Positions 7,088-12,600 of a stretch of DNA of 64,000 nucleotides are shown piece by piece; position 1 is the stretch's first letter, and each line of letters opens with the position of its first letter. The position numbers and the translations under genes were made by a program. Location of the stretch: assembly GCA_000146465.1 (NCBI GenBank), contig CP001942.1; one strand, 5' to 3'. The notes below the pieces were generated by a model. That model saw only the letters and a list, made by a program, of their open reading frames with translations. It was not told the DNA's origin and ran no database searches.

Positions 7088-7130
7088 TCCCTTTTGTTTT
7101 CGCTTTTTTATTAATACTATTTAATAATCC
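7088..7130. promoter_or_regulatory. A 43-bp divergent promoter region shared by the aminopeptidase (-) and DHFR (+).
   Basis: It is an AT-rich core (tttattaatactatttaataat) between two divergent start codons. This is inferred from the arrangement only. Confidence 0.3.
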
Positions 7131-7745
7131 ATGATTGCCTTAATTGTGGCTCTTGCTGCAAACCAAGGCATAGGAAGACACGGGAAACTCCCCTGGAAAC
7201 ATCCCCTCAAGACAGACATGGCCTGGTTCAGAATCCTCTCCCAGAGCGTCCCTATCCTTTCCCCCGACCACATCAGCCTCTCCCCCTCCAAATCAAATGT
7301 CGTCGTCATGGGCAGAAAGACATGGCACTCCATCCCCTCGCGCTTCAGGCCCCTTCAAAACCGCATCAATGTCGTCTTGTCAAGATCCTCCCTCCCCCAT
7401 TCCCAGAACACCTTCTTCATCCCAAGCTTCGCCGCCCTCGACCATCTACCTCTTCCCCCATCTCCTGCAACCTTTGTCATCGGAGGACATGACATCTATG
7501 CCCTTGCAATCCAGACAGGCAGGGTCCAGGCCATGTTTGTCACAGAGGTCCACGAGTCCCCAGAATGCGATGTGTTCTTCCCTCAGGTCGACTGGTCTTC
7601 CTACCAAAAGAGAGACATCACTCGCGATGTCGCCAGGCTTGTGGACACCACCCTTGTAGATGCCTTCTACATCCCAGAAGAAAACATCTTCAACGAAGGC
7701 GGCATCTCCTTCAAGATGTTCATTTACACCAAACTACATCCTTAG
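7131..7745 (+). CDS. DHFR: Dihydrofolate reductase (monofunctional).
   Basis: 204 aa. The N-terminus reads [32 protein letters not shown] (the DHFR NADPH and folate-binding signature). The ORF ends with TAG at 7743-7745. Confidence 0.9.
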
Positions 7746-7774
7746 TAGCCCTTCCAACCCTCCAAAAACATCAG

Positions 7775-8659
7775 ATGACCCAAGAAACAAGACATCCAGA
7801 ACACCAGTACCTCGATCTGATTGCCCACATCCTCGAAAAGGGTGTCAAGAGGCAAGACAGAACCGGCACAGGAACCCTGTCCATCTTCGGGGCATCAATG
7901 AGGTTTTCCCTCGAAGACAACACATTTCCCCTGCTGACAACAAAGAGGGTCTTCTACAAAGGCATTGTCGAGGAGCTTCTGTTCTTCCTGAGGGCCCAGA
8001 CAGACTCCGCCATCCTCGAGAAAAAAGGTGTCATGATCTGGAAGAAAAACGGATCCAAGCAGTTCCTGCAGTCCATGGGTCTGGACAGAGAGGAAGGAGA
8101 TTTAGGCCCAATATACGGGTTCCAATGGAGGCATTTCGGTGCAGAGTACCAGACATCCAGCTCAGACTATAAGGGCCAGGGCATCGACCAGATCAGGGAT
8201 GTGATCGAGTCGATCAAGAACAACCCAGAGAGCCGAAGGATGGTTGTGTGTGCATGGAACCCCCTGGCCCTTCCCAAGATGGCTCTCCCTCCCTGCCATG
8301 TTCTCTTCCAATTCAATGTGATGGATGGAAAGCTGAACTGTGCAATGTACCAAAGGTCGGGAGACATGGGCCTGGGCGTGCCCTTCAACATAGCTTCCTA
8401 CTCTCTGCTCACAATAATCATAGCCCATCTGACAGGCCTCCGGCCTGGAGAGTTTGTCCACTTCCTGGGGGATGCACATGTGTATCTTGACCACATCGAC
8501 TCCCTCAGGCTACAGCTCCAAAGAACGCCCCGAGAGTTCCCAAAGCTCTTTGTTAATCCAAAGGGAACAAGAGTGGAAATCGAAGACTTCGAGTTCGAGG
8601 ACTTCGAGCTTGTGGGGTACAACCCTCATCCTCCAATCCAGATGAACATGAGCGTCTGA
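7775..8659 (+). CDS. TYMS: Thymidylate synthase (monofunctional).
   Basis: 294 aa counted from the Met at 7775 ([39 protein letters not shown]). It has the active-site [10 protein letters not shown] motif. The ORF-track start at 7565 is an upstream in-frame extension overlapping DHFR and is unlikely to be used. Confidence 0.9.
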
Positions 8660-8705
8660 AAATCTTCCCTCCAACAAGTATTTAAGTTTTGGGGAAGGAC
8701 AAGCC

Positions 8706-10085: not shown

Positions 10086-10148
10086 TTTATTAAAAACGCT
10101 TCTTGCCGCCATCTCAGACAATAAAACCCCCTCCCCTTTCCAAAGCTA

Positions 10149-11993
10149 ATGAAGAAAATAGACCGTCGAGCAATATGGAGCAGACTTGCATCCATGCTAA
10201 AGCCCACATCTCCCCACGAGGTTGCAATAGTCGTTGTAATGGCCCTCTGCATCGTCCTTGGAAAGTGGCTTGACGTTGCTTCCATCAAGAAGAGAGGCTC
10301 TATCATCGACACCATAAAGCACATCAAGGACTCCGACAATCCAGGCATGTCCTTGATCTTCCGCAAGGCAACAGCCTTCCTCGTCCTCAGAACCCTCTCC
10401 TCTCTCTTCATCGAGTCCAAGGTCGTCCTCTTCTCCATCATAACAAACAGGATTGTCGAGGACATAACCTCCCGCATTCTTTACCTTGCAATCCACGCCT
10501 CCCATGCTTGCGAAATCAAGCCCACAAGCCTCAACAGGATTGTCGAGAGGGGAAACAAGAAGATCTGCAAGGTCCTTACAAAGATCCTCACCGTCGCCGT
10601 CCCTGCATTCTTCAACCTTGTTCTTCTCCTCAGAGAGGTCTATAGGATGTTTGGCCTCAGATACCTTCTCCCCATCCTCTTCACAATCTCCATCTATGCT
10701 GTCTACACCTTTGTGACCCTGAGGATCCGTTCCTGGTACAAGGAGAGAATCAACTATGCAGACAACTCGGTCTCCAAGAAGATCCACGAGTGTGTCTCAA
10801 ACATGGATCTTGTCAAGACATGCTGCTGCGAGCAGGCCGAGGTCGACAGCCTCCAGGAGATCATAAGGGCAATGTGGACTCTCAAGCTCTCCGACAAGGG
10901 ATGTGTGGCCATAATCAACTTTGGCCAGAGGATACTCTTCACAATCCTCTTTGTCTACTCCGTCCTCAAGGGCACTCCAGATGCCTTTTCCGGCACAATG
11001 ACCATTGGAGACCTGGCAACTCTCTTTTCCTTTGTATTCTCCATCGACCTGTCCATGTGGACACTGGGTGTCATTGCAAGGGACATGGGGTTCTGGCTGA
11101 TAGACTGCGAAGATCTGCTGATCCTCCACGACCACTTGGAGAGGATGGCCAGACAGAGTCCCGCCTCCTCCCTTGCCACAGGCTTCCCGTGTCCCTCTCT
11201 GTCATCCCCCAAGTCCCAAGCCCCTCCAGCCATCGAGTTCGAGGGCGTCAGCTTCGGATATCCAAACGCCCCTCCCATCCTCAGAAACCTGTCCTTCAAG
11301 ATTGCCCGTGGCGAGCGTGTCGGAATCATCGGAAGGCCTGGAAGCGGCAAGAGCTCCATCCTAAGGCTGATCCCGATGCTCCACTCCTACACAGGCTCCA
11401 TCCGCGTCAACGGCCTCGAGCTCCGCAACACCTCCCCTGCTGCCCTCCGCGCCTCCATCGCCTGCATTCTTCAGGACATGCCTTTCTTCGACGAGACTGT
11501 CTTCCACAACATTTCATACGGCCTCCCAGCAACCAGCCTCCAGAAGATCCTCGAGGCATCCAGGAGTGCAGGCCTCGGGCCCCTGCTTGTGAGGCGAGGA
11601 CTCCACTCGGCCATGAAGATGCTGAGCGGCGGAGAGGTCCAGATGGTCTCGATTGCAAGATGCCTGCTCCAGAACAAGCCGCTGATGCTTCTCGACGAGG
11701 TCACGTCGAGGCTGGATGCAAGTGGGGAAAGGGCCATCTTCGACCTGCTGATGGGCCTTCCCGGAAAGACTGTTGTCATGGTCTTCCACGATCTGTGGAT
11801 GGCAGAGCACATGGACAGGATCATCCTGATGGACGCCGGCCGCATAGTCGAGTCTGGAAGCCATGGCGAGCTGATGGAGCTCCGCGGGGAGTACTGGCGC
11901 ATGAAGACGGGGCTAGGAAACTTCAAACCCGCTGCAGGGGACCCATTGCAAAGCCGCCATGCCCCCCTGGATGCAGGATGCAGAGATCTGTAG
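10149..11993 (+). CDS. ABC half-transporter (N-terminal membrane domain plus C-terminal nucleotide-binding domain).
   Basis: 614 aa. The N-terminal part has multiple hydrophobic helices. Walker A is GRPGSGKSS, the ABC signature is LSGGEVQ, and Walker B is LLDEVTSRLD. Confidence 0.85.
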   Translation: MKKIDRRAIWSRLASMLKPTSPHEVAIVVVMALCIVLGKWLDVASIKKRGSIIDTIKHIKDSDNPGMSLIFRKATAFLVLRTLSSLFIESKVVLFSIITNRIVEDITSRILYLAIHASHACEIKPTSLNRIVERGNKKICKVLTKILTVAVPAFFNLVLLLREVYRMFGLRYLLPILFTISIYAVYTFVTLRIRSWYKERINYADNSVSKKIHECVSNMDLVKTCCCEQAEVDSLQEIIRAMWTLKLSDKGCVAIINFGQRILFTILFVYSVLKGTPDAFSGTMTIGDLATLFSFVFSIDLSMWTLGVIARDMGFWLIDCEDLLILHDHLERMARQSPASSLATGFPCPSLSSPKSQAPPAIEFEGVSFGYPNAPPILRNLSFKIARGERVGIIGRPGSGKSSILRLIPMLHSYTGSIRVNGLELRNTSPAALRASIACILQDMPFFDETVFHNISYGLPATSLQKILEASRSAGLGPLLVRRGLHSAMKMLSGGEVQMVSIARCLLQNKPLMLLDEVTSRLDASGERAIFDLLMGLPGKTVVMVFHDLWMAEHMDRIILMDAGRIVESGSHGELMELRGEYWRMKTGLGNFKPAAGDPLQSRHAPLDAGCRDL

Positions 11994-12492
11994 GCTTCTG
12001 GACGAGATCCAGTCCGACATTGACGGGGAGCACGAGGCGTTTGCAAGGAGGGACTTTGAGTGCAAGCTGGAGCACCACAGGAACATCAAGCCTCTGCTTG
12101 GAAAGAGGGACGGGCTTGTCCGCAGGGCAGTTGAGTGCTACTGGGCCCGCGCACTTGCGAACTACAGGCCCGGGGCGGCACTGCTCCCTGTGGATGCACT
12201 CGGCAGGCCAGACACGCGATGGCTGAGATCTCTCGAGGTCGACTACCTCCCTGAATATGGATACAGGGTGCACATGGAGCTCAACGAGAACGAGTTTGTG
12301 CAGAACACTGCGCTGACGAAGAAGGCATATCTTGGGAGGAGAGATGTGGAGAGGAGCGGGGTGCGGTGGAAGGGAGACCTGAGGTGTGCTGTGCTTGGGT
12401 TTTTTGAGACAGACACCCAGGACCTGGACATCTTTGACATCCTCTACGAGCTCTATGTCAACTCAGCCTTCTATTTTTTGAAGTCTCCCTGA
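11959..12492 (+). CDS. NAP/SET-family histone chaperone-like protein. Its start overlaps the 3' end of the ABC transporter CDS by ~23-35 nt.
   Basis: 177 aa. The N-terminal helix with KPLLGKRDGLVRR...YWARALANY resembles the NAP dimerisation helix. The C-terminal VRWKGDLR...LGFFETDTQD...YELYVNSAFYF resembles SET/NAP IKWKSGKDLT...SFFTWFTD. This was recognised from memory only. Confidence 0.55.
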   Translation: MPPWMQDAEICRLLDEIQSDIDGEHEAFARRDFECKLEHHRNIKPLLGKRDGLVRRAVECYWARALANYRPGAALLPVDALGRPDTRWLRSLEVDYLPEYGYRVHMELNENEFVQNTALTKKAYLGRRDVERSGVRWKGDLRCAVLGFFETDTQDLDIFDILYELYVNSAFYFLKSP

Positions 12493-12600
12493 AAGCTTCT
12501 TTTTCAAATTAATTAAAGTCCACAGGAATCCATTCTTCTTGGTTTTATCAATATGATTTACTCCCATTTGCCGAACAAAAAACAAAAATATTTAATTTTT

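Follow-up and report, generated by a model that had tools for sequence, protein, structure and literature searches.

Gene content and repeat structure of the chromosome end

The 64,000-nucleotide stretch of contig CP001942.1 (assembly GCA_000146465.1) analysed here, hereafter referred to as the window, represents the left end of chromosome I of Encephalitozoon intestinalis, in which an rRNA unit is followed by the genes for an M1-family aminopeptidase (APN), a dihydrofolate reductase (DHFR), a thymidylate synthase (TS), a serine hydroxymethyltransferase (SHMT), an ABC transporter and a NAP/SET-like protein, and then by the chromosome core. The terminal rDNA unit (27-3811) comprises a large-subunit rRNA gene (27-2407, minus strand; Rfam RF02543, 1414 bits) and a microsporidian small-subunit rRNA gene (2517-3811, minus strand; Rfam RF02542, 1115 bits). 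The aminopeptidase (4505-7087, minus strand; 860 amino acids) carries the Pfam domains Peptidase_M1, Peptidase_M1_N and ERAP1_C, and the genes that follow it in the block all lie on the plus strand. These are DHFR (7131-7745, 204 amino acids; Pfam DHFR_1, E = 2e-29), TS (7775-8659, 294 amino acids according to the telomere-to-telomere (T2T) annotation, which places it at 9070-9954 of locus L002; Pfam Thymidylat_synt, E = 1e-112), SHMT (8706-10085, 459 amino acids; Pfam SHMT, E = 4e-160), which matches a protein of E. intestinalis ATCC 50506 at 100%, and an ABC half-transporter with transmembrane and nucleotide-binding domains (10149-11993, 614 amino acids; Pfam ABC_membrane and ABC_tran). A longer open reading frame from position 7565 represents an upstream extension of TS. 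DHFR, TS and SHMT, written jointly as DHFR-TS-SHMT in the sequence-only reading, are three separate genes with no fusion.

The last gene of the repeat (11971-12492, plus strand) encodes a NAP/SET-family protein of 173 amino acids, and its stop codon lies 27 bp short of the end of homology. The Pfam NAP score of this protein (23.2 bits) is under the cut-off of 28.6 bits; a profile of five orthologues significantly matches solved NAP, SET and NRP structures over ~130 residues, with E-values from 7e-10 to 7e-6. An open reading frame of 478 amino acids (10790-12226, plus strand) that overlaps the ABC transporter and NAP genes, given earlier as an instance of long-open alternative frames, does exist. 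It was rejected as a gene, being out of frame with both in a block about twice as dense in long stop-free runs (38 runs of at least 100 codons, versus 15-20 in core stretches of equal size), and is open because stop codons are scarce in GC-rich DNA. Past the block, the edge of the single-copy core forms an AT-rich trough (12493-14100, GC 0.33). On its minus strand the trough holds a fast-evolving hydrophobic open reading frame of 242 amino acids (12601-13329) and a UBX-domain gene (13459-14070), and an aldolase gene (14163-15176) comes next.

Exact protein matches to the T2T assembly GCA_024399295.1 were found at three loci, and the segment 4040-12519 occurs there three times, namely on chromosome I at the left end and, inverted, at the right end, and on chromosome VIII at one end. 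The window is 99.95% identical by blastn to all three loci (L001, L002 and L003) across 4040-12519/12557. Compared with each other over 13.8 kb, the T2T copies differ by 0 substitutions and 3-7 gap openings. Homology to L001 stops at 12519 and homology to L003 at 12557, and the extra 38 bp (12520-12557) are common only to the chromosome I left and chromosome VIII copies, which points to one copy of this pair probably having been templated from the other. The duplication at chromosome ends named in the sequence-only reading is borne out by these data, and the single-copy status that had been named as counter-evidence does not apply.

An EXT-type repeat is one that recurs at several chromosome ends with at least 96.5% identity, as the block does. 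It is bordered by the terminal rDNA unit on one side and by the single-copy core (UBX and aldolase genes, from 12.6 kb) on the other, its gene content is aminopeptidase-dhfr-ts followed by SHMT, ABC transporter and NAP/SET (assigned by Pfam, and NAP/SET by profile matches), and its composition combines high GC, strand skew and a GC minimum where the repeat passes into the core.

At its distal edge in the window the rDNA abuts the repeat directly, with a C-rich spacer (3812-4039) before homology to the T2T loci begins at 4040 (blastn). The T2T assembly has at this position ~5.3 kb with two InterB (DUF3654/DUF1609) genes that are absent from the window. Four bases adjoining the 4040 junction differ between the window and the T2T assembly, as does base 4708 within the aminopeptidase gene. 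An exact-sequence look-up of the window aminopeptidase, intended to reach T2T sequence nearer the telomere, returned no match. Assemblies break or mis-join at the edges of the block.

Base composition and strand asymmetry

Sliding GC values are 0.48-0.59 in positions 1-12,500, 0.31-0.33 in 12,501-14,000 and 0.39-0.46 over the remaining window. The fall after ~12,470 reaches ~0.30 within ~300 bp (0.61, 0.47 and 0.28 in successive 200-bp bins across the boundary), and a two-segment likelihood analysis places the change-point at 12,468 (2*deltaLL = 329 over 4-20 kb). The corresponding change-point in L001 and L003 maps to 12,429 of the window. The compositional change (12430-12520) coincides with the end of inter-chromosomal homology, from which the change-points are 50-90 bp distant. 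The unique flanks of the three copies, each different from the others, have GC values of 0.28-0.42.

The six genes of the block show GC3 values of 0.58 (aminopeptidase), 0.66 (DHFR), 0.65 (TS), 0.70 (SHMT), 0.72 (ABC transporter) and 0.72 (NAP-like), compared with a mean of 0.469 (sd 0.053, maximum 0.581) for 51 core open reading frames and 0.29, 0.40 and 0.41 for the next three genes past the block. The sequence-only reading had described a GC-rich island with G/C-rich third positions, a sharp switch at ~12.5 kb and roughly 30% GC from 12.5 to 14.1 kb, all of which agree with the computed values, and the uniform GC3 that it had looked to as counter-evidence was not observed (block versus core, p = 2.8e-8, Mann-Whitney). 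Its start of the island at 7088 does not hold, as the GC-rich domain runs from the start of the window and includes the rRNA unit and the aminopeptidase gene, and the repeat itself starts at 4040.

GC is raised at the weakly constrained third-position and four-fold sites of the block and likewise at GC1 and GC2, and amino-acid usage moves in the same direction as base composition. The intergenic spacers of the block, amounting to only 181 bp, are not clearly richer in GC (0.39 versus 0.36). The ratio of observed to expected CpG, taken as a possible mark of the 5mC that has been reported for subtelomeres, comes to 0.64 for the block and 0.55 for the core, with no extra depletion. The distal InterB part of the repeat has modest values (GC 0.42-0.49, GC3 0.51-0.54), so that repetition alone does not yield high GC.

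The enrichment in E. intestinalis is strand-specific. At four-fold sites only C gains on the plus strand and G falls, with C at 0.50-0.59 and G at 0.05-0.13 in DHFR, SHMT and ABC transporter genes (0.59 and 0.05 in DHFR), the core baseline being 0.19 and 0.22; the effect is milder in TS (C 0.37, G 0.23). On the coding strand of the aminopeptidase, a minus-strand gene, G is 0.46 and C 0.03, such that genes on opposite strands of one genome have opposite coding-strand base preferences and the third-position skew from the aminopeptidase through the ABC transporter gene is unaffected by gene orientation. Along the T2T locus the plus-strand GC skew is -0.88 distally and declines gradually to ~0 where the core is reached.

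The duplication within the genus Encephalitozoon

An 8-kb duplicated cluster of six genes on E. cuniculi chromosome I was reportedly described by Peyret et al. in 2001. The E. cuniculi subterminal repeat EXT1, with the sub-blocks EXT1-2 and EXT1-3 (Dia et al. [quoted passage not shown] It differs in that SHMT, ABC transporter and NAP are reported on chromosome I only, whereas all six genes are also present on chromosome VIII in E. intestinalis, in that its skew changes between dhfr and ts, whereas the plus-strand C excess of E. intestinalis extends through the ABC transporter gene, and in its block nucleotide identity of ~72% to E. intestinalis. In E. intestinalis ATCC 50506 a 27.3-kb terminal duplication of chromosomes I and VIII has been described, along with abrupt GC shifts that delimit the chromosome cores and GC/AT, GT/AC and GA/CT biases over the duplicated, partly methylated subtelomeres (Mascarenhas dos Santos et al. 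2023, PMC10158259). The window represents the same locus, except for the two InterB genes and the four bases at the junction, and its segment 4040-12519 is the part of that duplication nearest the core. Its authors offer no mechanism behind the biases and say that the repeated segments lack conservation between species, whereas the present block is conserved between species in gene content and boundary.

The two-ended duplication and its boundary recur in E. cuniculi and E. hellem, and in these two species and E. intestinalis the homology limit lies 17-27 bp past the NAP stop codon. The block is syntenic beside the same core genes in four species (E. intestinalis, E. cuniculi, E. hellem and E. 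romaleae), and GC3 is higher in the block than in the flank in E. cuniculi, E. hellem, E. romaleae and one further relative. The two E. cuniculi chromosome I copies show 0 substitutions in 13.8 kb and the E. hellem copies 8 substitutions in 9.2 kb, and copies group by species in the SHMT identity matrix. Between species, block identity is 72-73% and flank identity 73.5-74.5%, with synonymous sites near saturation at ~72% overall identity. Near-identity within species against ~72% between them indicates concerted evolution. Copies identical within three species, with orthologues ~27% apart, provide indirect evidence for putative ongoing recombination or conversion among the copies, and the block has been kept homogeneous from before the diversification of the genus.

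Strand polarity differs between the congeners. At aligned four-fold sites of the block, C in E. intestinalis is paired with G in E. hellem 85 times and the reverse occurs 5 times, compared with 4 and 3 times, respectively, in the flank genes. The enrichment is strand-specific in E. intestinalis, of opposite polarity in E. hellem, and symmetric in the TS, SHMT and ABC transporter genes of E. cuniculi (C and G ~0.35 each). A younger duplicated stretch of 2.1 kb in E. hellem (98.8% identity) is AT-rich, with GC3 ~0.31-0.33.

Origin of the unusual composition

We consider it likely, with a probability of roughly 85%, that the island is the core-proximal part of an old terminal duplication, of the EXT1 type in E. 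cuniculi nomenclature, whose composition is a by-product of repeat-specific DNA transactions rather than of gene content, selection or foreign origin. The duplication carries six housekeeping genes, and recurrent recombination among the chromosome ends apparently maintains the identity of its copies. The compositional step lies at the homology limit, presumably because the homogenising process stops there, and the adjoining unique DNA lies at the AT-rich low point by which the core edges of Encephalitozoon chromosomes are marked. Two components would be needed, one a general push to G/C, possibly through biased gene conversion, and the other a strong strand-asymmetric enrichment of G on the strand running 5' to 3' toward the telomere, which could stem from one-directional replication, break-induced copying toward the telomere or telomere-directed transcription.

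Tracts of GC-biased gene conversion (gBGC) occur in yeast and mammals. GC-rich subtelomeres in Cryptosporidium canis are put down to recombination or biased gene conversion (PMC10438818), and these cases resemble the present one in having raised GC at chromosome ends, in multi-copy, recombination-prone regions; the Encephalitozoon enrichment differs in being strand-specific, with a polarity that varies between congeners, which gBGC does not predict. The sequence-only reading had suggested a subtelomeric duplication homogenised by such conversion. Its duplication and homogenisation stand, and the homogenised copies, the GC3 and four-fold GC raised only within the homologous tract, the raised GC1 and GC2 and the balanced C and G of the three E. 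cuniculi genes are all expected of gBGC. However, gBGC alone is insufficient because the enrichment in E. intestinalis is strand-specific while gBGC is strand-symmetric; the 85:5 bias against E. hellem, the lack of high GC in the distal part of the repeat and the AT-richness of the younger E. hellem stretch also speak against it, and conversion bias is unlikely to be the whole cause. A purely strand-asymmetric mutational regime at chromosome ends, without conversion bias, agrees with the graded skew along the T2T locus, with the indifference of the third-position skew to gene orientation and with the G-rich, T-rich strand toward the telomere, which has the sign of a leading-strand skew. Such a regime could originate in one-directional replication from the last origin to the telomere, in break-induced replication or in telomere-directed transcription; Dia et al. 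2016 argued likewise and favoured replication or transcription as the source of the skew (PMC4704409). Asymmetry by itself does not raise total G+C, however, and the effect ends at the homology limit, though forks from or toward the block would cross into the core. Usual nuclear replication skews are also smaller than that of the aminopeptidase four-fold sites (C 0.03 versus G 0.46), and this regime is doubtful as a full account.

Selection on codon usage for high expression, which would make nucleotide-metabolism genes GC3-rich, agrees with an effect greatest at third codon positions. It is nevertheless very improbable, as the preferred third bases are opposite between strands in one genome and between congeners for the same gene, and the step follows the repeat boundary rather than gene function, the aldolase gene 1.7 kb away, expected to be highly expressed, having a GC3 of 0.41. 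Horizontally acquired DNA of composition still unadjusted to the host, raised earlier as the alternative, fits the sharp step and is otherwise extremely improbable. For SHMT, the one gene of the six subjected to a wide homologue search, the nearest relatives are those of E. cuniculi, E. romaleae and E. hellem (73-75% identity), followed by other microsporidia including Nematocida and Amphiamblys; the pattern of a transferred island, with homologues outside the lineage and absence from the syntenic site, was not found. The synteny of the whole block in four species makes a recent transfer untenable, its between-species divergence equals that of the flank, and the species-specific composition of the same genes implies that the composition is being made in place. 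A limited literature search returned nothing relevant on horizontal transfer of folate genes in Encephalitozoon.

It may tentatively be suggested that a tract-limited, strand-asymmetric process writes the composition of the repeat, with a polarity switch point that has moved within the genus; in E. hellem the switch would then lie at DHFR, in E. cuniculi between DHFR and TS, and in E. intestinalis between the ABC transporter and NAP genes. Candidate sources are mutagenesis of a long-lived single strand during break-induced copying toward the telomere and a telomere-directed transcript or fork starting within the block.

Earlier publications on E. cuniculi (PMC4704409) and on this E. intestinalis strain (PMC10158259) already cover the repeat with its genes, high GC and skew, as well as the abrupt change where the core begins, and the finding of the island as such adds nothing new. 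As far as the two papers show, they describe skews, and the reversal at orthologous sites and its bearing on gBGC go beyond them. For annotation, the block calls for caution, since it yields many spurious long open reading frames and assembly breaks or mis-joins at its edges. Its residual value is as a test of how chromosome-end recombination and the polarity of replication or transcription shape base composition, with six conserved housekeeping genes, single-copy neighbours a few hundred bases off as an internal control, and the same genes under different strand polarities in sister species. If the proposed switch in polarity is true, the same synonymous sites of essential folate-pathway genes would have been pushed toward C in one of the species and toward G in a second, with amino-acid composition pulled along.

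Composition and gene content of the chromosome end

The SHMT protein of the window matches its counterpart in Encephalitozoon intestinalis ATCC 50506 at 100% identity, and an exact-sequence look-up located it on CP075158.1 and CP075165.1 of the telomere-to-telomere (T2T) assembly GCA_024399295.1; the window is thus from chromosome I of this species, at its left end. It begins with a microsporidian rDNA unit recognised by Rfam (LSU rRNA, 27-2407, and SSU rRNA, 2517-3811, both on the minus strand), followed by a six-gene repeat (4040-12519, hereafter the block). Pfam searches identified in the block an M1 aminopeptidase (4505-7087, minus strand), DHFR (7131-7745), thymidylate synthase (TS; 7775-8659), SHMT (8706-10085) and an ABC half-transporter (10149-11993). 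The sixth product, a small NAP-like protein (11971-12492), scored below the Pfam NAP cut-off, and a profile of five orthologues matches solved NAP/SET structures (E = 7e-10 to 7e-6). The single-copy core then opens with a hydrophobic 242-aa ORF (12601-13329, minus strand; GC3, the GC at third codon positions, 0.29) in an AT trough, for which the Pfam search gave no match, and continues with a UBX protein and a class-I aldolase, both on the minus strand and identified by Pfam. The 242-aa ORF shares only 46% identity with its counterpart in E. cuniculi, as against about 73% at the DNA level for neighbouring loci; the E. hellem locus, where the gap between NAP and UBX is only about 200 bp, yielded no match. 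The core carries a single tRNA gene (29944-30015, plus strand; Rfam RF00005, 63.5 bits).

The GC-rich island and the sharp switch at about 12.5 kb noticed in the sequence-only reading are real, with sliding GC, change-point analysis and GC3 all in agreement. In 1-kb windows, GC is 0.47-0.59 across 1-12,500, drops to 0.31-0.33 in 12,501-14,000 and lies at 0.35-0.46 in the remainder of the window. A two-segment likelihood analysis of 4-20 kb places the change-point at 12,468 (2*deltaLL = 329), and GC in successive 200-bp bins at the boundary falls from 0.61 through 0.47 to 0.28, so that the compositional step spans about 300 bp. GC3 is not uniform across the window: it is 0.58 in the aminopeptidase, 0.66 in DHFR, 0.65 in TS, 0.70 in SHMT and 0.72 in both the ABC transporter and NAP-like genes, as against a mean of 0.469 (sd 0.053) in the other 51 ORFs (block versus core, Mann-Whitney p = 2.8e-8), and the three genes next after the block have values of 0.29, 0.40 and 0.41. 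The first six core genes (12601-17893) show GC3 of 0.29-0.45 as compared with a mean of 0.48 in the other 45 core ORFs (p = 5.5e-5), which fits the published fall in GC toward core edges. CpG depletion is alike in block and core (0.64 and 0.55).

The left limit of 7088 proposed for the island is arbitrary, since GC is also high in the rDNA unit and in the aminopeptidase gene, and the repeat begins at 4040. Long stop-free runs are about twice as numerous in the block (38) as in an equal length of core (15-20). The 478-aa ORF at 10790-12226 is present as described, but lies out of frame over the ABC and NAP genes; it is ruled out as a gene and represents a compositional by-product.

Copies of the block and their limits

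The subtelomeric duplication posited in the sequence-only reading was recovered in the T2T assembly, where the identical SHMT protein occurs at three sites: once at each end of the 189.8-kb record, the two being inverted relative to each other, and at one end of the 247-kb record. By blastn, the locus at chromosome I left matches window 4040-20085 at 99.98% identity, while the near-identical copies sought at other chromosome ends were found at chromosome I right (4040-12519) and on chromosome VIII (4040-12557), each at 99.95%. No substitution separates the three T2T copies over 13.8 kb, their sole differences being 3-7 gap openings. Homology runs on for 50-90 bp past the change-point, which in the latter two loci corresponds to window 12,429, and the unique flanks of the three loci are all different and all AT-rich (GC 0.28-0.42). 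Therefore, the GC step is the edge of the repeat. The copies on chromosome VIII and at chromosome I left share 38 bp (12520-12557) beyond what chromosome I left and chromosome I right have in common, an indication that one of the former pair was templated from the other.

In the window, the rDNA is joined to the repeat at 4040 via a 228-bp C-rich spacer; in the T2T assembly this place is taken by about 5.3 kb of sequence that includes two InterB (DUF3654/DUF1609) genes. The window differs from all three T2T copies at only four bases (4150, 4165, 4314 and 4708), all within 670 bp of the junction, and at each of them it has G/C where the T2T copies have A/T. This suggests one of two readings of the junction: a chimera, in which the source assembly was joined here to a different chromosome end, or a genuine structural variant. 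In another E. intestinalis assembly a contig (L005) begins at window 12,399, and an Encephalitozoon-like contig of 8.3 kb (L013, 1-8320; run SRR21633403), with SHMT 72% identical, consists of exactly the six-gene block; both show assemblers failing at this repeat.

Conservation of the block among microsporidia

The same six genes are present at two ends of CP091441.1 in E. cuniculi (L010 and L011) and at two loci on CP119062.1 in E. hellem (L008 and L009), adjoined in both species by the UBX and aldolase genes on one side and by chitin synthase on the other; the chitin-synthase side is also seen in E. romaleae (L007). Copies within a species are nearly identical: those of E. cuniculi show 0 substitutions over 13.8 kb and those of E. 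hellem 8 over 9.2 kb, and the SHMT identity matrix groups copies strictly by species. Between species, the block is 72-73% identical and the flanking core genes 73.5-74.5%, and the limit of homology lies 17-27 bp past the NAP stop codon in E. intestinalis, E. cuniculi and E. hellem. Thus, the two-ended duplication has at least the age of the genus, and its homogenisation, up to a fixed limit, has been continuous; this bears out the earlier proposal that the duplicated ends are homogenised.

A foreign origin of the island, raised as the alternative, is ruled out by the synteny in four species, by a divergence of the block equal to that of its flanks and by the relatives of its SHMT, the best matches being E. 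cuniculi (75%), E. romaleae (74%) and E. hellem (73%), followed by microsporidian-like sequences and then Nematocida and Amphiamblys. As the same genes differ in composition species by species, the composition is generated in place. GC3 of the block exceeds that of the flank in every other species examined with a flank, namely E. cuniculi (0.69-0.78 versus 0.34-0.60), E. hellem (0.57-0.67 versus 0.42-0.56) and E. romaleae (0.48-0.59 versus 0.39-0.49), in agreement with a process tied to the repeat. The flankless contig L013, with GC3 of 0.79-0.89, exceeds the four named species. Duplication alone is insufficient for high GC, since the InterB distal portion of the same repeat has GC3 of only 0.51-0.54 and an extra 2.1-kb stretch duplicated beside the block in E. 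hellem (L008 2087-4200 and L009 2145-4260; 98.8% identity) is AT-rich, with GC3 of about 0.31-0.33. The latter duplicate agrees with the published view of a recent rearrangement between chromosomes I and VIII in this E. hellem isolate.

The same pattern was observed at a contig end of a more distant microsporidian (L014, 1-5000; run DRR353006; SHMT 60% identical), where GC is 0.49-0.52 in SHMT and the next gene, dips to 0.33-0.40 and then reaches about 0.43. In an uncultured relative (L015, 454-11854; JGI metagenome 3300073835; SHMT 66% identical), SHMT and ABC directly adjoin B-box, clathrin-adaptor and LSM genes, the flank of the E. intestinalis chromosome VIII copy; this contig has neither the NAP gene nor a GC step, its GC being uniform at about 0.50. 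In the internal E. hellem copy (L008 9067-9950), a 1-bp indel relative to the terminal one breaks TS into two ORFs, and the E. romaleae aminopeptidase (L007 2535-5131) is also split in two, reflecting either copy-specific decay or sequencing errors.

Strand asymmetry and the cause of the composition

Four-fold degenerate sites were counted on the coding strand for each gene and species. Against an E. intestinalis core baseline of C 0.19 and G 0.22, the values are C 0.59 and G 0.05 in DHFR, 0.50 and 0.13 in SHMT, 0.52 and 0.13 in ABC, and C 0.03 and G 0.46 in the minus-strand aminopeptidase; on the plus strand of the window, C alone is enriched and G depleted regardless of gene orientation. In the orthologous genes the polarity is reversed in E. 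hellem (TS, SHMT, ABC and NAP; C 0.14-0.19, G 0.39-0.44) and balanced in E. cuniculi (TS, SHMT and ABC; both about 0.35). Among aligned four-fold sites of DHFR, TS, SHMT and ABC, those where an E. intestinalis C faces an E. hellem G form the largest class (85, versus 5 for the reverse), the flank genes giving 4 versus 3. The proteins are also affected, with Pro, Ala, His and Gln up and Gly, Val, Glu down in E. intestinalis relative to E. hellem. The switch of polarity at four-fold sites is located in DHFR in E. hellem (L009), at DHFR/TS in E. cuniculi (L010), at TS/SHMT in L013 and at ABC/NAP in E. intestinalis. Along the T2T locus, plus-strand GC skew goes from -0.88 distally to about 0 at the core boundary as GC rises from 0.42 to 0.60, and the asymmetry disappears at the limit of homology.

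Because the enrichment is strand-specific, no process that acts alike on both strands can be its sole cause; this includes GC-biased gene conversion (gBGC), which had been proposed for the composition. gBGC may nevertheless supply a general push toward G/C. The asymmetric part could derive from ordinary replication running in one direction, from break-induced copying or from transcription toward the telomere; its sign is the one to be expected should the 5'-to-3' strand toward the telomere act as the leading or non-template strand, and we can only infer which of the three acts. The earlier interpretation is, therefore, right on subtelomeric duplication and homogenisation, would err only in a preference for the foreign-origin alternative, and is incomplete on the cause of the composition.

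Much of this has precedent. In E. cuniculi, the aminopeptidase-dhfr-ts cluster lies in the three-copy EXT1-2 repeat, and SHMT, ABC and NAP/SET in EXT1-3, which is confined to chromosome I; chromosome ends have a mean GC of 60%, with a minimum of about 24% where the repeat gives way to the core and GC skew from there to the rDNA (Dia et al. 2016, PMC4704409). SHMT-ABC-NAP is reported absent from E. cuniculi chromosome VIII, whereas E. intestinalis chromosome VIII has a copy. The same authors named replication, transcription and gBGC as possible causes, and made the leading/non-template-strand argument for E. cuniculi with the transition placed between dhfr and ts (PMC4704409). For the present strain, a 27.3-kb near-identical duplication that involves chromosome I at both ends and chromosome VIII at one has been described, along with strong GC/AT, GT/AC and GA/CT biases in the duplicated, methylated subtelomeres and abrupt GC shifts that serve to delimit the cores (Mascarenhas dos Santos et al. 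2023, PMC10158259). Given these descriptions, the island itself was already known. The repeated segments have been called not conserved between species (PMC10158259); the cross-species conservation of block boundary and gene content, and the opposite strand polarity that congeners show at orthologous synonymous sites, may go beyond both reports.
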